A DNA stretch of 64,000 nt, taken from NCBI GenBank assembly GCA_001818775.1, contig MHKD01000042.1:41022-105021 (forward strand). Direction: 5' to 3'. The notes beneath the pieces were generated by a model that saw only the letters and a list, made by a program, of their open reading frames with translations, was not told where the DNA came from and ran no database searches. Origin of the DNA: Candidatus Kerfeldbacteria bacterium RIFCSPHIGHO2_12_FULL_48_17 (GTDB lineage Bacteria > Patescibacteriota > Patescibacteriia > HO2-48-17). The translations under genes were made by a program, and so were the position numbers. This document shows, in pieces, positions 4,038-42,647 of the stretch (position 1 is the stretch's first letter; each line of letters opens with the position of its first letter).

Positions 4038-4415
4038 TCAAGAAATGCTTTCTTCGGTTTCATCTTCATCATCCTGATTTTTCACCTGGTCTTGATCAGT
4101 TGCCTTGGTTCTTTTTGCCCGGCGACGAATGGATGAAGACGAACTTTTCCTGGCTCTGAAATCACGAACAAGGCCGCCAATATGCTTAAACTCCTTAACA
4201 AGAAAGGAAATTGATTGCGCTGAAGTAAAAATTTTATCCTTAATAGCCAGAACGGCCCGTTCAATCTCTTCGATCTTCTCCCGAAATTCCTTCACCATTT
4301 CATTGCCCTGCTTGAGCAGTGTGCCGATATAGTACATGATCCAAACCAGAAAAACCGTAAATACCAAAATACAAACCGTAAGGACAATATAAAGATAATC
4401 AAGGGACGTAAGCAT
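4038..4415 (-). CDS. Small membrane protein (N-terminal TM helix, C-terminal coiled-coil and acidic/basic tail), hypothetical
   Basis: ORF track 4038..4466. Start moved to the internal Met (MLTSLDYLYIVLTVCILVFTVFLVWIMYY...). No recognisable family. Confidence 0.4.
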   Translation of the reverse strand: MLTSLDYLYIVLTVCILVFTVFLVWIMYYIGTLLKQGNEMVKEFREKIEEIERAVLAIKDKIFTSAQSISFLVKEFKHIGGLVRDFRARKSSSSSIRRRAKRTKATDQDQVKNQDDEDETEESIS

Positions 4416-4508
4416 ATTTTTTGTGTAATTTTTATTCTGTCTGAGACAACACATGCAGTATAGCATATTTTTTTATTTCGGGAAAAAATGCTAGAATAAA
4501 ACCTAAAG

Positions 4509-4666
4509 GGTCTGTCGCCGAATACCATTTCTGCTGCAATCATGGAATTTTGGCCAGAACCGCTTCAAAATTTTTCGGCTTATATTCCATATAAACCTCA
4601 AAATTTATTCAGCAATTCTGTCACAAAATTCCATGATTTCGTCACGAAAGCGTATTCGGCGACAGA
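4509..4666 (+). mobile_element. MITE-like non-autonomous element, copy A (~158 bp). Has 16-bp terminal inverted repeats, a 14-bp sub-terminal inverted repeat and an 8-bp target-site duplication.
   Basis: Terminal inverted repeats GGTCTGTCGCCGAATA...TATTCGGCGACAGAC. Sub-terminal inverted repeat AATCATGGAATTTT / AAAATTCCATGATT. Flanked by the direct repeat ACCTAAAG (4501-4508 and 4667-4674). No coding capacity for a transposase. Copy B at 16880-17039 is 158/159 identical in inverted orientation. Confidence 0.8.
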
Positions 4667-4689
4667 CACCTAAAGACAAACAAAGTCAT

Positions 4690-5565
4690 ATGGCGGAGAC
4701 AAGAATGAGTGATGCGGAATTTTCTTTCGGGTACTGGTGGGTCACGCACCGAGGGCAGCTACGAAAAACTTCCGGCATTACTCTGGTGATTATACATTTA
4801 CTTCTTATAACAACACTCGTCATCCAGGGAGTGAGTTTTGTGTTTGAAGTCATGCGCACGGCCGACTACTTCGAAACAATGGCACAGCCGGATATCGCCT
4901 ACGCCGACGTCCGAAACAAGCAACAACCGCAAAATATCCAACTGGGCGCGACCCAGGTTTTTGATTCTGATCTGGAAGGCAGAGTGAATATCGCCACGGA
5001 AATCACGAATCCCAACGAACACTGGGCCGTGAAAAAAATAACGTACAGCGCGGTGGTCAATGGCGAATTGCAGTCGCCGGAAACCGATTTCCTTATGGCC
5101 CAGGAACGCCACTTTATCACCACATTTGGCATTGAAGCGGCAAGTGCCGGCCAGGTTCAGGCCACGCTGAATGTAACGGACGTTGAATGGGAGCGCGTGA
5201 ATGCATACACAACGCCGAAAGGCAGGATAGATGTCACTGACATTGAGTTCAGCCCGAGCATTACCGTCGAAGATGCCACGAGCAGCGACCAGGTTTTCAG
5301 TCAGGCGACGGCCGACATAACCAACCGCGATATATTTACTTTCGCCGAAGCGGAATTTATCGTCGTGGCGGAAATACAGGGGGATATCATCGCGGTGAGA
5401 AGAATCATGCTCAAAGACCTTATCCCGAGTGAAACGCAAACACTGAGAGCGCAGTGGAGCAGACGGATAAGTCCGGGGGCGGAAGTGAGCGTTCTGACCC
5501 ATATCAACCTCATCGACAAAACCAACAGGAAACTCAGTTTGACACAACCCGCATCAACTGAGTAG
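4690..5565 (+). CDS. Hypothetical membrane-anchored protein with a beta-rich extracytoplasmic domain
   Basis: ORF track 4633..5565. The first 19 codons (MISSRKRIRRQT...) come from MITE sequence, so the native start is probably ATG at 4690 (MAETRMSDAEF) or 4705. One TM helix (ITLVIIHLLLITTLVIQGV), then two similar beta-rich repeats. Confidence 0.5.
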   Translation: MAETRMSDAEFSFGYWWVTHRGQLRKTSGITLVIIHLLLITTLVIQGVSFVFEVMRTADYFETMAQPDIAYADVRNKQQPQNIQLGATQVFDSDLEGRVNIATEITNPNEHWAVKKITYSAVVNGELQSPETDFLMAQERHFITTFGIEAASAGQVQATLNVTDVEWERVNAYTTPKGRIDVTDIEFSPSITVEDATSSDQVFSQATADITNRDIFTFAEAEFIVVAEIQGDIIAVRRIMLKDLIPSETQTLRAQWSRRISPGAEVSVLTHINLIDKTNRKLSLTQPASTE

Positions 5566-7914: not shown

Positions 7915-9015
7915 ATGGAGAAAATAAAAGAACTCCTCTGGGCTTTCAAACAAAACAAAAAAACGCAAATGATTGCACTGGGAAGTGTAATCATTGCTAT
8001 TGTTGTGATACTTGGGATCCTTTTCTTTACAAAAAATCAGGATGACAGTCAGGCCACCGTGACAAATCTCAACAGCAATACCGGGGACAATCCGGAAAGA
8101 CTGCGAAGGTTTATTGATGGTGTTTTTGTGAGTTCAGGAAATGAAAATCTTCATCCAAAAGCAGTAATGATTGAAAACCTTGTCAGTACGAGGCCACAGA
8201 GCGGGCTAGGACAGGCAAATATGGTATATGAAACACTCGCCGAAGGAGGAATCACTCGGTTTCTTGCTTTCTATGCCGACGTCGAGAAACCACTCAAAGA
8301 AATCGGACCGGTGCGCTCAGCCAGGCCGTATTTTGTGGCTATAGCCGAAGAGTATGGGGCTTTATACGCGCACGCCGGCGGGAGCCCGGAAGCGCTGACA
8401 GGCATTCAGGGAACAAAAAAAATCACCAATCTTGACCAGATAAGCGGGGATCACCCCTATTTTTGGCGGGCGGACGACCGGGAAGCACCGCACAACCTCT
8501 TCACATCAACAGAGTTGTTGGAACGCGCGGCCAGAGACAAACAAGTCACGGAGTCAGGTGATTTTGATCCCTGGAAATTCAAAGACGATGCGACTTTGGA
8601 AGAACGGCCGCAGGATGGCGCAGAACTCATTCTCAATTTTTCCAGCACCGATTACCGGGTACGGTATATGTATGATAGAGAAACCAACACCTATTACCGT
8701 TACCAGGGGCAGGAAAAACACATCGACAAACTCACCAACGAACAGCTCCATCCGAAAAATATTCTTGTGCAAATGACAACAAGTGCGGTTTTGGAAACAG
8801 ACACCGGCAGGCTCAGCATCGAAACATCCGGCGAAGGAAAAGCACTGATGTATTTTGACGGGCAAAAAAAGGAAGGCACATGGAAGAAGAGCGAATCAGG
8901 ACGCACGATTTTTTACGACGAAAATGGCCGGGAAGTGGAAATGAATGCCGGTCAAACCTGGATAGAGGTCATCCCGAACGACAAAGAGATACTCTATAAT
9001 CAGACCAGTCCGTAA
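7915..9015 (+). CDS. N-terminally membrane-anchored exported protein, paralogue 1 of a tandem pair (possibly DUF3048/YerB-like)
   Basis: Signal-anchor (IALGSVIIAIVVILGILFF). Blocks conserved with the next gene: GGITRF.A.Y...EIGPVRSARPY...ALYAHAGGSPEAL...APHNLFTSTELL. The family name is from memory only. Confidence 0.55.
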   Translation: MEKIKELLWAFKQNKKTQMIALGSVIIAIVVILGILFFTKNQDDSQATVTNLNSNTGDNPERLRRFIDGVFVSSGNENLHPKAVMIENLVSTRPQSGLGQANMVYETLAEGGITRFLAFYADVEKPLKEIGPVRSARPYFVAIAEEYGALYAHAGGSPEALTGIQGTKKITNLDQISGDHPYFWRADDREAPHNLFTSTELLERAARDKQVTESGDFDPWKFKDDATLEERPQDGAELILNFSSTDYRVRYMYDRETNTYYRYQGQEKHIDKLTNEQLHPKNILVQMTTSAVLETDTGRLSIETSGEGKALMYFDGQKKEGTWKKSESGRTIFYDENGREVEMNAGQTWIEVIPNDKEILYNQTSP

Positions 9016-9024
9016 TATACGCCG

Positions 9025-10161
9025 ATGCCAAAAGAAAACAAAGAAAAGAAAAATACAGAAATAAAAATAAAGGAGACGCCCTTTTGGAAAAAATACAGGA
9101 TCGCCATTATTTTTGCGACGCTCGCGATCATCATTGCCGGTACCGGCATCACCTACGCGTACATGAACCAATCCACACCACCGGCGACAGCGAAAAAAGA
9201 AACAAAAAACACCCAGGCGGAAAAAACCACCCCGAGCAACGAACGACACCTCGACGGCAGGCGAGTCGCAATAAAAGATGCCAATAAATATCCGGTGGCT
9301 GTAATGATTGAAAATCTCAGCCCGGTACGGCCCCAAGCCGGACTGGGACAGGCGCAGGTGGTATATGAATCGTTGGTTGAAGGAGGGATAACGCGTTTCA
9401 TGGCCATCTATGACCTCAGTGAAAAAATTGATGAAATCGGCCCGGTGCGGTCAGCCAGACCCTACTACCTCGAATGGGTTTCAGAATATGACGCTCTGTA
9501 CGCGCACGCCGGGGGGAGCCCGGAAGCGCTGCAGGCGATTTCAGGTTTCAATATACATGATCTGAACCAGATCGGCGGGGCACAGGGCTATTACTGGCGA
9601 AGCGACAGCGTCCCGGCTCCACACAACCTTTTTACATCCACGGAGTTACTTACCCGTGCCATAAACGATAACAAACTCGCTGATGTAGAACCGACCTACA
9701 CTCCATGGACATTTACCGATGACCCGGAGGACAACAAAAAAAGCACGGACAAAGAAGTCCAAGCAACTGCAGCCTCGAACATCAGCATTGATTTTTCGAG
9801 CCCTTCCTACAAAGTGGAATATGCCTACGACGCGACCACAAAAGAGTACCTGCGTTCAAACGGCGGCGTACCACACACGGACAAAAACACGGAACAACAA
9901 ATTCGGGCTAAAACGGTGGTGGTTGTCAGCATACCGCCGGTTACTGATGTCGGAGAAAAGGGCAGGATCACCCTGAGTATTCATGGTGGAGGACCGGTGC
10001 GCATTGCCCGTTTTGGCGAAGTGATAACGGGCACGTGGAAAAAAGCCGATCGCACGGCGCGGACGGAATTTTTTGACGCACGTGGGGAAAAAATTGACCT
10101 GGGTCGGGGAAATATCTGGGTGGAAATTGTTCCGGAGGATAAGGGAGTGGAATTTAAGTAA
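9025..10161 (+). CDS. N-terminally membrane-anchored exported protein, paralogue 2 of the tandem pair
   Basis: Same architecture and motif blocks as 7915-9015 (roughly 45-50% identity by eye). Ends 5 nt before the ABC ATPase start. Confidence 0.55.
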   Translation: MPKENKEKKNTEIKIKETPFWKKYRIAIIFATLAIIIAGTGITYAYMNQSTPPATAKKETKNTQAEKTTPSNERHLDGRRVAIKDANKYPVAVMIENLSPVRPQAGLGQAQVVYESLVEGGITRFMAIYDLSEKIDEIGPVRSARPYYLEWVSEYDALYAHAGGSPEALQAISGFNIHDLNQIGGAQGYYWRSDSVPAPHNLFTSTELLTRAINDNKLADVEPTYTPWTFTDDPEDNKKSTDKEVQATAASNISIDFSSPSYKVEYAYDATTKEYLRSNGGVPHTDKNTEQQIRAKTVVVVSIPPVTDVGEKGRITLSIHGGGPVRIARFGEVITGTWKKADRTARTEFFDARGEKIDLGRGNIWVEIVPEDKGVEFK

Positions 10162-15186: not shown

Positions 15187-15957
15187 ATGTCAGATCAGAA
15201 AACACCAAAAATTTCCGTCGTTATTCCGGCATATAATGAAGTCAAAAAAATCAGGCGATGTCTTACGGCTCTGCAAAAACAAAGCATAAGAGACCCCTAC
15301 GAGATTATCGTTGTTGACAATGGCAGCAGTGATGATACGGCGCCAGTTGCCCGCAAGTTTGGTGTTACGGTCCTTGAAGAAAAAACCCGGGGTGTAGCCT
15401 GTGCCCGGCAGAGGGGTTTTCAGGCGGCGCGGGGGGACATAATTGCCAGTACCGATGCCGATACGATCGTTCCCCCTGATTGGCTGCAAACAATACAAAA
15501 CGCCATGGCTGATCCAAAACGCGTCGGTGTCATGGGTACTTTTTTATTCTACGACCGGGGAAAAATATGGAATGGTTTGACAAAAATAATAACACCGGCT
15601 ATCCGCTTCATTGACTGGATCGTTGGTCATGGACAAAATCATTTTATCGGAATGAATTTTGCCGTCAGAAAGGAAGCCTTCAGAAAAAGTGCGGGGTTCA
15701 ACACCAACCTCAAATACGGTGAAGATATCGATCTTGCAAAAAAAATGAAAAAGTACGGCCGAATAGCGTATATAAAAAAAATGAGGGTCCTTACGCACTC
15801 GCGCCGGTATCAGCTCAACCTGGCATTCGCGAAGTATGTGGTGAACTTTATAAAGACAGACATTACCGGAAAACCATTTCGCAATGAGTTACCGAAAATA
15901 GAGGGAAAAAAGGAAGAAAAAATCCGAAAAAACGAAACTCACTCAGACGCTAGATAA
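15187..15957 (+). CDS. Family-2 glycosyltransferase (soluble GT-A)
   Basis: KISVVIPAYNEVKKIRRCL...IIVVDNGSSDDT...TDADT. Track ORF 14722..15957 is over-extended into the upstream gene. True start is the ATG 3 nt after the upstream stop. Confidence 0.85.
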   Translation: MSDQKTPKISVVIPAYNEVKKIRRCLTALQKQSIRDPYEIIVVDNGSSDDTAPVARKFGVTVLEEKTRGVACARQRGFQAARGDIIASTDADTIVPPDWLQTIQNAMADPKRVGVMGTFLFYDRGKIWNGLTKIITPAIRFIDWIVGHGQNHFIGMNFAVRKEAFRKSAGFNTNLKYGEDIDLAKKMKKYGRIAYIKKMRVLTHSRRYQLNLAFAKYVVNFIKTDITGKPFRNELPKIEGKKEEKIRKNETHSDAR

Positions 15958-16915
15958 TATCGACGCCGAAACCCCGTATAAACTCGCTTGCGGACATCAC
16001 TTTCCCGCCGGCGGGTTGTATTTTTTCTATGAGAAGTTGTGTCTGCCGGGCACAGGGAACAACCAGAGCGTCGGACACGTCGGACAGGACACCGGAATCC
16101 TGACTTCCCTGGGCGCGTGCCTGAACAAGTCTTAGGCGCAAACCGTCTTTTTGACGCACATGAAACACTCCTGGCCATAAAGCAAACGCCCGAATTTTTC
16201 GTTCGATCTCGGTCGCCGGTTCGGAAAAATCAACCCGGCCATCTTCCTTTGTGAGAAGCCGACTGTAGGTTGCCTTTGCGTCATCCTGGGGAACCGGGAT
16301 GACTCTCTGGTCAAGGTACTGCGGCAAAACACGGTCAAGATCACGCGCCCCGAGCTCAAAAAGAGTGCGCGATAAAGAAAAAAAGTCTTCCTGCGGGAGC
16401 AGTATATGGCTGCTTTGAGAAAGTATCGGTCCGGTATCCATGCGGACATCCATCTTCATAATGGTTACCCCGGTTGGTGAGGTATTGTGCCACAAAGCAA
16501 ACTGCAAAGGCGACGGCCCCCGCCAGACCGGAAGAAGGGAAGGATGAATATTGAGAAACCCGCTCGGGGGAAGGGACAGTATACCTTCAGGAATAATTTT
16601 TCCGTACGCAGCCGTCACAGCAACATCGGGGGATAATTTTCGCAGAATAGCAGCAACACGGGGATCCTGAAGTTTTTCCGGTTGAAAAACCGGTATGCCG
16701 TGCTGTTCGGCCGAAAGTTTCACCGGAGTTGACCGGAGCGCCTTACCCCGACCCTGAGGTTTATCAGGCTGCGTAAAAACCCCGACGACGGCATACCGGG
16801 GATTTTCAACGAGCACCCGCAAACAAGGTAAAACAAAATCAGGCGTACCGAAAAATACAACCCGAACCGGCTCAATATGGGTCTGTCGCCGAATACGCTT
16901 TCGTGACGAAATCAT
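15950..16915 (-). CDS. fmt: Methionyl-tRNA formyltransferase (Fmt), whose current start codon is supplied by the MITE
   Basis: VRVVFFGTPDFVLPCLRVL...VVGVFTQPDKPQGRGKAL and the C-terminal Fmt domain. The ancestral ATG (17052..17050, overlapping the def stop) is now out of frame. The first in-frame ATG is 16915 inside MITE copy B, giving the N-terminus MISSRKRIRRQT-HIEPV... Confidence 0.85.
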   Translation of the reverse strand: MISSRKRIRRQTHIEPVRVVFFGTPDFVLPCLRVLVENPRYAVVGVFTQPDKPQGRGKALRSTPVKLSAEQHGIPVFQPEKLQDPRVAAILRKLSPDVAVTAAYGKIIPEGILSLPPSGFLNIHPSLLPVWRGPSPLQFALWHNTSPTGVTIMKMDVRMDTGPILSQSSHILLPQEDFFSLSRTLFELGARDLDRVLPQYLDQRVIPVPQDDAKATYSRLLTKEDGRVDFSEPATEIERKIRAFALWPGVFHVRQKDGLRLRLVQARAQGSQDSGVLSDVSDALVVPCARQTQLLIEKIQPAGGKVMSASEFIRGFGVDII

Positions 16916-17039
16916 GGAATTTTGTGACAGAATTGCTGAATAAATTTTGAGGTTTATATGGAATATAAGCCGAAAAATTTTGAAACGGTTCTGGCCAAAA
17001 TTCCATGATTGCAGCAGAAATGGTATTCGGCGACAGACC
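16880..17039 (-). mobile_element. MITE-like element, copy B. Inverted relative to copy A, 158/159 identical, with a 7-bp target-site duplication.
   Basis: Same terminal and sub-terminal inverted repeats as copy A. Flanked by CAATATG direct repeats (16873-16879 and 17040-17046). Inserted 4 bp downstream of the def stop / ancestral fmt start overlap. Confidence 0.8.
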
Positions 17040-17048
17040 CAATATGCG

Positions 17049-17576
17049 TCATATACGTGTGCGTGAAGGGTCACCACCTGCGCCGCCAGCCGCGCCATCC
17101 TTAAGACCGCCGCTGACAATACGCTCGGCCTTATCAATAAAAAGAATACCGTTTAAGTGATCGACCTCGTGCTGAAAAACCTTTGCTGTGAGACCGGTAG
17201 CCTTGACATCAACAGGTTTACCGTGCCTGTCAAGAGCCTTAAGACGAACCTTCACGGGTCTCTTTACCAGGCCATATACACCCGGCACAGACAAACACCC
17301 TTCTTCCATATAGGTTTCACGTTGCGAAAAAGAAACAATCTTTGGATTCACAAAAACCTGGGCATCGTGACGGGTTTTCCCGCCCAAAACAAAAACCTGG
17401 TGCGGTGTGCCCACCTGTGTGGCGGCAATACCGATACCATCATCAGCAATCATGGTATCGGTGAGATCCTCAATAAGCGCCTGTACTTCTTTGCTGCGCA
17501 GCTTTTCAAGGGTGATGTTTTTTGCCACCTCACGCAGCCGTTTATCGGGATGTTTTAATACGGGAAGTATGCTCAT
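17049..17576 (-). CDS. def: Peptide deformylase
   Basis: Motifs GIGIAATQVG, EGCLSVPG and HEVDHLNG. Start moved to the Met of MSILPVLKHPD (track start at 17669 is over-extended). Stop TGA at 17051..17049. Confidence 0.9.
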   Translation of the reverse strand: MSILPVLKHPDKRLREVAKNITLEKLRSKEVQALIEDLTDTMIADDGIGIAATQVGTPHQVFVLGGKTRHDAQVFVNPKIVSFSQRETYMEEGCLSVPGVYGLVKRPVKVRLKALDRHGKPVDVKATGLTAKVFQHEVDHLNGILFIDKAERIVSGGLKDGAAGGAGGDPSRTRI

Positions 17577-40733: not shown

Positions 40734-42647
40734 TCAGCGCAGTTTTATGAAGAATTCACGATCAACGCTTAAATCAGTGGAAAATCTGATCTTATTATCA
40801 CCGTCATCCTGGCTAATGTCAAGGGGTTTCCACTCCAAAATTCGCTTACCTAAGTCAAAAACAACATTAAGGCCATGCTCAAGTGTTCCTGACTGTTTCT
40901 GGACCAATAAGGTATACCCATCACCCTCAATCTGTTCCTGCACACGCTCTGGCAGCGTATAGCGAAAGCTGAGAACTCCTTCCTGGCCCGGCTCAATCGA
41001 AATGAAGGCGCCAAAGCTGGTTTTACCGAGTTCATCAATAACTTCCACTTCTCCGGGCTTGGCGCCGTGAAGCTTGTCATTCTCCATGACGCCACCCGAA
41101 TCCAGGAGCTGACTCCCCTGCGGCACATACACACGTGTGTAGGTGCGATAGCGAGTGGTCTTCCAGTCAAATTTACCGTTATGTTTATAATGGATTTCCA
41201 CATTACTCACCAAACCCTGTTCCTTGTCATCGGAAAGCGTATAATTGACCGTTCGTTCCATTACCTGATCGGTTTTTAAACTGGCCAGATTCGCATCAAC
41301 CACCATGAGGAAATCACCATTGGTCTGTTTTAATTCTCCGGACCAGCCCTGGGCCTCAACCAGCGACTGAACGTGATCATCCTCAAGTGAAATCAGAATA
41401 TGCTTTTGATTGACATCATTCTGGAACGTCAACCATAAATCCTTCCAGCGCTCCTTTGGCAGGGCCATAACGTGATCCATGATGCTGTTCGCCAATTCAC
41501 CGATAATGGCTTTACGTTCGGCTTCGGAAAGGCCGCGTTTATAAAAATCAACTTCAACCTCGTACTGTAAAACATCAATGAGGTTTTCACTGGTGAATTC
41601 AACACCGGAAACGGTTATGGGTCCGGTGAGCTCCAGCAATGACTGAATAAACGTCGGGGTGACGGATATAACGCCATCGAGGCGTTCCTCCGGCCCGTCT
41701 TCGAGGTGATAAAGTTCAGTGGCCAACTGGGCAGCCTCATGAAAATCCGGACTCCAGTTGGAATCACGTAAAAACCATTCCGTGCCGCCGATATATTTTG
41801 AAATCTGCCACGGCGGAGCCTTGAAATTCTTCCCCTTTGATTTTTCATCAATATTATAAATATTATCGGTTTCAAAGAGAGCGATATCCCCGTTATAAAG
41901 CTTAAGCGTGCCGTAAGTACCGATAAAACCCCCGGTCGGACGAAGCTCGGTGTTGTTTTGCAGCAGAAAAAGATACGTTTTTTCATTGGGGTAACCAACG
42001 ATCGCTGGCAGAGCTTCCATGGCCGGCACTGCCTGGTCAATAACCGACTGAATAAGCGGCAATTTCTCTTTCACGGTGTCACTTGCCTTTTTTATGGAAG
42101 ACAGCAGGCCGTATTCGGGAATTTTCTCCATGGCCAAAACCGCCAAATCCAGATCTGCCTTGGCGCCCTGGAGTTCAGGCGGCGATTCGTGCATTTTTTT
42201 CAAAATCTGACGCTTTTGTTCCGGACTGATGGCATCAAGACTCACGTCGCTGTCCTCCTGAACCACCGCGAGAATTTCATCCCCGAACTTCACAAATTTC
42301 AGCAGAGAAGAACTCAACTGTGAACCGGCAACAAGAATATTCTCCGTGGCATTGACCTGCCTTGAGACAAGCGGAATGAGTTTCAGAACTTTCATCTTAT
42401 CAACACTGACCAGAGCAGCATCAAACTCCGCCTGGGCAGATGCCAGGGCCGCAACGGCATCATTGAGATTTTGCTGTTCAATAAGACCCTGAGCCCGAAC
42501 AATTTCATCCTGACCACGGAGCGCCGCCTGATACGCGGCCAGGGCGTTTTGATAATTGGCCAGCACCAGAACAAAAGAAAGAACAATAAATACTATCAAA
42601 AAAAGACCGGCTTTTTTCATGAAGGAAAGTTTTTTCTTTTTTTTCAT
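40734..42647 (-). CDS. Large N-terminally anchored extracytoplasmic protein (DUF4012-like?), hypothetical
   Basis: Start at MKKKKKLSFMKKAGLFLIVF (track start extended to 42752). One TM helix, then ~600 aa predicted extracytoplasmic. Name recalled from similar loci, not verified. Confidence 0.45.
   Translation of the reverse strand: MKKKKKLSFMKKAGLFLIVFIVLSFVLVLANYQNALAAYQAALRGQDEIVRAQGLIEQQNLNDAVAALASAQAEFDAALVSVDKMKVLKLIPLVSRQVNATENILVAGSQLSSSLLKFVKFGDEILAVVQEDSDVSLDAISPEQKRQILKKMHESPPELQGAKADLDLAVLAMEKIPEYGLLSSIKKASDTVKEKLPLIQSVIDQAVPAMEALPAIVGYPNEKTYLFLLQNNTELRPTGGFIGTYGTLKLYNGDIALFETDNIYNIDEKSKGKNFKAPPWQISKYIGGTEWFLRDSNWSPDFHEAAQLATELYHLEDGPEERLDGVISVTPTFIQSLLELTGPITVSGVEFTSENLIDVLQYEVEVDFYKRGLSEAERKAIIGELANSIMDHVMALPKERWKDLWLTFQNDVNQKHILISLEDDHVQSLVEAQGWSGELKQTNGDFLMVVDANLASLKTDQVMERTVNYTLSDDKEQGLVSNVEIHYKHNGKFDWKTTRYRTYTRVYVPQGSQLLDSGGVMENDKLHGAKPGEVEVIDELGKTSFGAFISIEPGQEGVLSFRYTLPERVQEQIEGDGYTLLVQKQSGTLEHGLNVVFDLGKRILEWKPLDISQDDGDNKIRFSTDLSVDREFFIKLR

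Follow-up and report, generated by a model that had tools for sequence, protein, structure and literature searches.

The 64,000-nt stretch of DNA analysed here (hereafter the window; positions 41,022 to 105,021, forward strand, of contig MHKD01000042.1, Candidatus Kerfeldbacteria bacterium RIFCSPHIGHO2_12_FULL_48_17) carries two copies, A and B, of a 162-bp palindromic element that is a non-autonomous DNA transposon, a MITE (miniature inverted-repeat transposable element). It is placed in this class by its terminal inverted repeats (TIRs), a target-site duplication (TSD) of fixed length, its small size, the absence of coding capacity and the presence of many dispersed copies. The explanation that we consider probable as a whole is that the element is moved in trans and tolerated at gene boundaries, and that copy B, in the 5' end of the methionyl-tRNA formyltransferase gene fmt, donates the fmt start codon. 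A first-pass annotation, made from the letters of the stretch, had described a mobile palindromic element with an outward ATGATT at each end, and both parts of that description were borne out. The copies and their ends are as follows.

4508 to 4669, plus strand (L end to R end): MITE copy A, 162 bp long, from repeat and hairpin evidence
4508 to 4525, plus strand: left TIR of copy A, GGGTCTGTCGCCGAATAC, a 16-mer extended by GG
4652 to 4669, minus strand: right TIR of copy A, in which the outermost CC reads AC
4503 to 4507, unstranded: left TSD of copy A, CTAAA, perfect 5-bp match
4670 to 4674, unstranded: right TSD of copy A, CTAAA, perfect 5-bp match
16879 to 17040, minus strand (L end to R end): MITE copy B, lying within the 5' end of fmt
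16874 to 16878, unstranded: fmt-proximal TSD of copy B, AATAT, perfect 5-bp match
17041 to 17045, unstranded: def-proximal TSD of copy B, AATAT, perfect 5-bp match

The 16-mer GTCTGTCGCCGAATAC matches the window four times (4510 and 16881 on the plus strand, 4652 and 17023 on the minus strand) against 0.02 matches expected, and the matches form two inverted pairs, 4510/4652 and 16881/17023. Among 70 further TIR-paired copies, taken from genomes other than that of the window, GG precedes the 16-mer in 60 and CC follows it in 58; these bases belong to the TIR, so the element ends two bases outside the 16-mer, which leaves a direct repeat of 5 bp on its flanks. Copies A and B accordingly have a TIR of 18 bp (GGGTCTGTCGCCGAATAC). 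An initial idea of a 7-8-bp TSD and an IS1595-like or ISL3-like origin was dropped on the evidence of these 70 copies. Perfect over 16-18 bp in both window copies, the TIR is conserved in the 70 others, and the 5-bp TSD, perfect at A and B, is also perfect in 39 of the 70 and has at most one mismatch in 46, with shifted registers giving only 0-11 perfect duplications. TSD positions in the family are more than 85% A/T, with a consensus of roughly WTWAW. The two window copies lie inverted to each other and differ at a single position (98-99% identity over about 160 nt). Two of the three L-to-R reading frames of the element contain no stop, the longest open reading frame (ORF) within it encodes 43 aa, and it holds no transposase gene. 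As RNA, the element folds over its full 162 bp as a single hairpin (-69.6 kcal/mol, z = -12.9), and the outward ATGATT is found on both arms because the motif is built on the palindrome CATG. A composite transposon formed by A and B (inverted, 12.2 kb apart) was rejected, because A and B are each flanked by a matching TSD of their own, and housekeeping genes, no transposase, lie between them.

In a scan of one genome per species, the TIR occurred repeatedly only in metagenome-assembled genomes (MAGs) of Patescibacteria, namely another Kerfeldbacteria genome (copies 90% identical), one Falkowbacteria, one Magasanikbacteria and three unclassified "Patescibacteria group" MAGs. Lone 16-mer matches in non-Patescibacteria genomes were taken as chance, a few hundred being expected in 596 Gb by our own estimate. 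A scan of JGI metagenomes with a subfamily-specific 24-mer gave eight further full copies, 97-100% identical to the window copies and all from one genome project, Ga0155625; this degree of identity indicates that the window subfamily was active recently. With two copies in the window, these eight, and dozens elsewhere, the element is a multi-copy repeat.

The hairpin itself could be what is kept, with the repeat acting as a functional RNA or DNA structure (an mRNA 5'/3' stabiliser, an RNase III site or an attenuator) and its positions selected for that role; such roles have been proposed for REP, ERIC and Correia elements. The stability of the whole-length hairpin speaks for this, as do sites inside transcription units at gene junctions and compensatory changes in both arms between subfamilies: double substitutions occur in 15 of 35 predicted pairs, and CATGG/CCATG in the window subfamily corresponds to CGTAG/CTACG in the other Kerfeldbacteria genome. 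Covariation is expected anyway, however, if both ends bind the same transposase and the subfamilies come from symmetric founders. There is no U-tract terminator, and copies decay to 33-81-bp remnants. Rfam returned no match at gathering thresholds in the whole window and, in a relaxed search, only sub-threshold generic eukaryotic miRNA-precursor hairpins far below the cut-offs, and the idea of a known RNA family was dropped. Selection for a hairpin role is in our view unlikely to explain the repeat, and such a role would be compatible with the MITE explanation, not exclusive of it.

Copy B and the start codon of fmt

The features at the def-fmt junction, in the direction of transcription, are these.

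17049 to 17576, minus strand: def (peptide deformylase), from Pfam and database annotation
17050 to 17052, minus strand: native fmt ATG, which forms an ATGA overlap with the def stop TGA (17049-17051) and is no longer in frame with fmt
16954 to 17052, minus strand: 32-codon leftover ORF (MTHIGSVAEYHF...GLYSI*), which starts at the native ATG, crosses the 5' arm and stops at a TAA (16956-16954) just past the apical loop
16913 to 16915, minus strand: element ATG, the fmt start in NCBI OGY81727.1, from frame scan and annotation
15950 to 16915, minus strand: fmt (methionyl-tRNA formyltransferase) from the element ATG, with the Pfam domain from residue 18

Copy B is not upstream of fmt, a correction to the first-pass annotation; it lies 9-10 nt inside the original fmt coding sequence, after codon 3-4. 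With the element and one TSD removed, def reads ...CGT ATA TGA... and fmt reads ATG ACG CAT ATT GAG CCG GTT... (MTHIEPVRVVFFGTPDF), and the closest available relative, L135 (Fmt 64% identical), has the same def/fmt ATGA overlap and lacks the element. The fmt frame is open through the entire copy B, the native-ATG frame stops inside the element, and the element ATG at 16915 is the only ATG, GTG or TTG in the fmt frame from codon -53 to codon +31. The R end of copy B yields MISSRKRIRRQT fused to Fmt in place of MT, confirming the prefix that the first-pass annotation had read on Fmt, and 12 element-encoded residues would form the Fmt N-terminus. Because it is the only canonical in-frame start nearby and is the one used in OGY81727.1, the element ATG very probably serves as the fmt start, copy B having severed the native one. 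Copy B was at the same site in all five independent assemblies recovered, and in exact-protein look-ups with Def and RodA each recovered contig carried the element or broke in it.

The reading frames suggest how such a start might be reached. The insertion broke the ATGA stop/start overlap with def, so that Fmt could then be made only from the R-arm ATG. Ribosomes finishing def may restart at the old ATG and translate the leftover ORF, which spans the whole 5' arm and ends immediately on the 3' side of the apical loop, leaving 38 nt to the element ATG. Their passage through the 5' arm would melt the stem and expose the element ATG downstream; coupling by structure melting is a classical form of translational coupling. 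Taken by itself, the 3' arm has no more structure than shuffled sequence does (z = 0.17). A tryptic peptide of the leftover ORF would be SVAEYHFCCNHGILAR. A motif resembling a Shine-Dalgarno (SD) sequence precedes the first start in four of the 57 long ORFs of the window, against a 9% background, and the regions upstream of its ORFs are simply A/T-rich; this Kerfeldbacteria genome appears to use SD-independent initiation. In a genome essentially without SD motifs, start choice should depend on local lack of structure, and with so few motifs an accessible A/U-rich ATG would resemble the other starts of the genome.

Several points weigh against this account. The element ATG of fmt lies in a very stable stem, the junction with both arms folding at -81.7 kcal/mol. 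ENA callers start Fmt 61 codons upstream of it, and IPFLLQSWNFGQNR is the peptide expected from a start at 17098. The exact empty site was recovered for neither A nor B (the reconstructed empty-site sequences of the window insertions are TATGACGCATATTGAGCC and AAAACCTAAAGACAAAC), the five assemblies with copy B are all filled, and the reconstructed def/fmt empty site had no match in JGI metagenomes.

A replacement ATG buried in a stem of about -80 kcal/mol, together with a native ATG that is cut off and out of frame, would also fit an insertion that inactivated fmt, leaving a young pseudogene that has an in-frame element ATG by coincidence; the 99% identity of the copies marks the insertion as recent, and little can be concluded from an ORF that is still intact. 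We nevertheless find this quite unlikely. The frame is open through the whole element and the ATG stands 17 codons before the conserved Fmt domain, when the prior chance of an in-frame rescue is only 1-in-3; in five independent samples the insertion is fixed; the neighbouring def, which needs formylation for its function, is intact; and the leftover ORF offers a plausible way to open the stem. Donation of the start by copy B, if correct, makes fmt a clean natural case in which a transposon insertion destroys a start codon and donates a new one, and it brings a testable ribosome-coupling mechanism in an organism without SD sequences.

The repeat has also left its mark on databases, where ENA, NCBI and protein-level assemblies hold three differing Fmt models. 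The database Fmt P0001 (SRC, SRR3990167_3147922), a cluster representative, consists of the inward frame-0 ORF of the element (MEFWPEP...KFHDFV) joined directly to LPCLRVL of Fmt through the tripeptide DFV that both share; it lacks the conserved N-terminal strand and looks like a chimera from protein-level assembly. L133 (ERZ27254763 k141_484018), which runs from def into copy B and, inside the element, changes to the sequence variant and right flank of a different, CTACG-type copy, is a repeat-induced chimeric assembly. Knowledge of the element thus flags annotation errors in which protein N- or C-termini are derived from the repeat.

Insertion sites and copy A

The first-pass annotation had proposed that the element preferentially targets translation-initiation regions. 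We rebuilt the empty sites of the 70 family copies, with all AT-rich pentamers in the same DNA as control. Of these copies 49 are intergenic and four lie in gene bodies, while the final 45 nt of an ORF hold 14 and the initial 45 nt three, so that 66 of the 70 (94%) are at gene-boundary sites versus 22% of the control 5-mers. Stop codons form the nearest boundary of 28 copies and start codons that of 19; at a cut-off of 30 nt, 31 copies are close to a stop and 26 to a start. Fourteen copies are co-oriented with their flanking genes and 12 opposed to them. The pattern fits an AT-rich target preference combined with loss of gene-disrupting insertions, not homing to initiation regions, and with stops outnumbering starts and ORF 3' ends outnumbering 5' ends the proposed preference could not be upheld. 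In compact genomes with AT-rich junctions only boundary insertions would survive, and copies would accordingly be found near start and stop codons alike.

Homing to translation-initiation regions, with outward starts and an internal promoter rewiring the downstream genes, finds its best case in the window subfamily, sampled as ten near-identical copies (two in the window and eight in Ga0155625). For four of the ten a start codon is no more than 25 nt away, one copy occupies an ATGA overlap, and the TSD of another abuts an ATG. The R end faces a gene start in eight of the ten, seven of the eight informative copies are co-oriented with genes (p ~0.07), and the element ATG is mutated to ATA in an out-of-frame copy. 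These figures count against a purely boundary-driven distribution, and so does the survey's use of crude gene calls (longest ORFs of at least 80 aa), mostly from other genomes; on this sample a mild start or orientation bias may exist in the window subfamily. On the other side stand the family-wide excess of stops and ORF 3' ends, the near-even orientation of the broad family, the lack of a sigma-70-like promoter match (see below), the sequestration of the ATG in the stem, and its in-frame occurrence with the downstream gene in three of eight near-identical copies, exactly the chance expectation. That the same end faces a gene in both window copies, as had been pointed out, is correct; by itself it has a 50% probability by chance. 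The outward ATG, taken earlier for a feature of the element, is missing from its sister subfamilies, which have CTACG (the other Kerfeldbacteria genome) or GAAAT (marine MAGs); judged by this comparison it is a lineage-specific by-product of the palindromic CATG, unconserved across the family. Homing to starts is, on balance, very unlikely.

The out-of-frame copy with ATA, at L128:2484-2641, lies exactly in the ATGA stop/start overlap from an RNase H-like gene to the next gene, and thanks to the duplicated ATGA(T/A) neither the stop nor the start is lost. Its R-arm ATG, which would be out of frame with the gene, is the only one in the subfamily that is mutated.

Around copy A the relevant features are the following.

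4489 to 4497, plus strand: extended -10-like motif TGCTAGAAT, 5 nt upstream of the copy A target site, read directly
4541 to 4543, minus strand: L-arm outward ATG, out of frame with the divergent gene 4038-4466, opening ORF 4292 to 4543
4633 to 4635, plus strand: R-arm outward ATG, in frame with the 4690 gene, pairing with CAT 4541-4543 in the hairpin
4690 to 5565, plus strand: hypothetical protein without a Pfam family, with a single hydrophobic segment at its N-terminus, from gene calls

Copy A was inserted between divergent genes, 41 nt from the ATG of 4038-4466 (minus strand). Its adjacency to a membrane-protein gene, noted before, holds, although not the distance of 23 bp: ATG 4690 is 20 nt from the element end at 4669 (16 nt in empty-site coordinates), and ATG 4705, the NCBI start and the sole candidate start with GGAG upstream, is 35 nt away. 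The gene is called from 4690 (291 aa) or from 4705 (286 aa, NCBI). ATG 4633 heads ORF 4633 to 5565 and shares its frame with ATG 4690, as the first-pass annotation had read. This in-frame position is incidental: it had a 1-in-3 chance, the codon is buried in the -69.6 kcal/mol stem, and no caller uses it. The L-arm ATG is out of frame with its divergent gene because the distance from 4543 to 4466 is no multiple of 3, and the minus-strand ORF that it opens starts MIAAEM.

The outward promoter suggested for the central A/T-rich part found no counterpart in a sigma-70-like promoter scan of 4300-4900 on both strands, which gave no hit against 1.6 expected in shuffles. This two-hexamer scan did not report TGCTAGAAT either; if that motif is used, the whole of copy A would be 5' leader of the 4690 mRNA. 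Copy A lies about 20-35 nt upstream of the hypothetical membrane-protein gene, at or just past a likely promoter, and most likely only adds a long 5' hairpin to the mRNA. One independent assembly carries the insertion too, while a further assembly breaks inside copy A. Copy A is by itself unremarkable, and copy B is the more consequential of the two.

Variants, decay and load of the family

Distances between TIR ends fall into length classes of 33, 40, 71, 81, 127, 157-159 and 186 bp, and orthologous intergenic regions with and without the element were found when two related MAGs were compared. In the other Kerfeldbacteria genome, L051:2278-2450 and L031:7486-7643 represent a second subfamily with the same TIR and subterminal GCTTTCG, whose core is an unrelated G+C-rich hairpin, GAGGAGGAAGACTCTCC...GGAGAGTCTTCCTCC. 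Twenty-eight copies consist of TIR, one base and TIR (33 bp, or 37 bp if GG/CC are counted), and every one has a 5-bp TSD of its own (for example L040:3675-3707, L076:1318-1350 and L113:3824-3856). In the 157-bp type the L arm includes CCGAATAC-C-GTATTCGG, and a deletion between direct GTATTCGG repeats would give the 33-bp form, either recurrently in place or once, followed by transposition. Solo element ends, their partner arm missing, occur at L031:1093-1122 and 1728-1757. One of them forms the C-terminal tail (...WGLSPNTLSSPYAS...) of one ORF and directly precedes the ATG of another; we take these ORFs to be glutamate dehydrogenase-like and RNase HII-like on their translations, without a Pfam check. 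Decayed copies thus contribute to annotated protein ends.

Family density reaches about eight TIR ends per 10 kb in L002-L113 (JBBTVV01, H43-bin112_1) and about five per 10 kb in the JAHJAP01 (Modern_marine.mb.217) loci, values that are biased upward, the loci having been fetched for containing the TIR. In H43, 42 of 66 locus edges fall inside an element, and the MAG assemblies are fragmented by this repeat, which explains why some Patescibacteria MAGs assemble into tiny contigs that break at the element. The element documents an active MITE family in the Candidate Phyla Radiation (CPR), whose genomes are regarded as streamlined and poor in mobile DNA.

A more far-reaching reading joins these strands: an undescribed CPR-wide MITE family, possibly served by a novel transposase with a 5-bp stagger, would have been co-opted as the fmt start, its hairpin and the leftover ORF restoring def-fmt coupling, and sister genomes would carry about one copy per 2-3 kb. 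Taken with all its parts we hold this as possible rather than probable. If true, one copy per 2-3 kb would be an unusually heavy repeat load for streamlined genomes of about 1 Mb.

Mobilisation and comparison with known systems

The element would be moved in trans by a transposase making 5-bp staggered cuts at AT-rich pentamers. The missing partner counts against this part of the explanation: no autonomous element or transposase was found in the window, 129 related loci or viral contigs, although the search was of limited scope and absence is unproven. Within the same limits, no TIR-bounded segment with a long ORF was found in the 129 loci. Intra-genome repeats of at least 250 bp were absent apart from the MITE, and an all-against-all BLAST of the loci gave only orthologous regions and no multi-copy insertion sequence. 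Viral contigs gave only two chance 17-mer matches in coding DNA, and a plasmid BLAST gave no match. TIR pairs 400-3000 bp apart were considered as an autonomous parent and rejected as separate small copies or chance 3-mismatch matches inside genes (among them a 1.5-kb pair in L031 and one at L128:6700). Separately, two tandem paralogous DUF3048 genes lie at 7915-9015 and 9025-10161 of the window and account for the 88%-identical 49-nt direct repeat that a repeat finder reported at 8349/9483.

Mobilisation by a RAYT (HUH) transposase instead of a DDE-type enzyme, as for REP/REPIN elements, would suit the palindromic doublet architecture and the high copy number. It is scarcely credible here: most copies have clear 5-bp TSDs, which single-strand insertion by HUH enzymes does not make, and no RAYT-like gene was seen beside any of the copies examined.

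Known bacterial MITEs (reviewed in PMC10969869; Delihas, PMC3184786) share with the element its small size (37-190 bp), non-coding and multi-copy nature, TIRs, TSDs, whole-length hairpin, gene-junction sites and occasional in-frame read-through into neighbouring ORFs. Its TIR sequence, its 5-bp AT-rich TSD and its host phylum, Patescibacteria, are unlike those of the commonly cited families, and the literature searched contained no paper linking MITEs with CPR/Patescibacteria. TIME elements, derivatives of the Tn3 family, also make 5-6-bp AT-rich target duplications (PMC4133298), a property shared by the present element. TIMEs, however, are at least 262 bp long with 38-40-bp inverted repeats homologous to Tn3-family transposons, whereas perfect end identity stops here at 18 bp and, as noted, plasmids, which are rich in Tn3-family elements, gave no BLAST match. 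The outer end, GGG(G)TCTG..., resembles the start of Tn3 inverted repeats, a likeness that may fall short of homology to a Tn3-family inverted repeat, and the search described above found no Tn3-type (DDE_Tnp_Tn3) transposase.

The Correia elements of Neisseria (CREE/NEMIS) are likewise hairpin MITEs at gene junctions, 100-160 bp long, co-transcribed and able to alter downstream expression. They differ from the element described here in their 26-bp TIRs, TA duplication, IHF sites and documented outward promoters (PMC10969869); the present element has a 5-bp TSD, an 18-bp TIR of other sequence and a Patescibacteria host, and no promoter-like site was detected in it. Hairpins, promoters and in-frame fusions contributed by MITEs are established for Correia, ERIC, BOX and Rickettsia palindromic elements (RPEs; PMC10969869), so the element is no new kind of system. 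The Fmt N-terminus recalls RPEs, in that a palindrome with stop-free frames can be read as host protein. A search with the 53-aa frame+1 translation of the element found no other protein cluster representative. RPEs typically lie in frame within many gene bodies, whereas only four of 70 copies of this family are in bodies, and the Fmt fusion, at the extreme N-terminus, is an isolated example that replaces a lost start codon.

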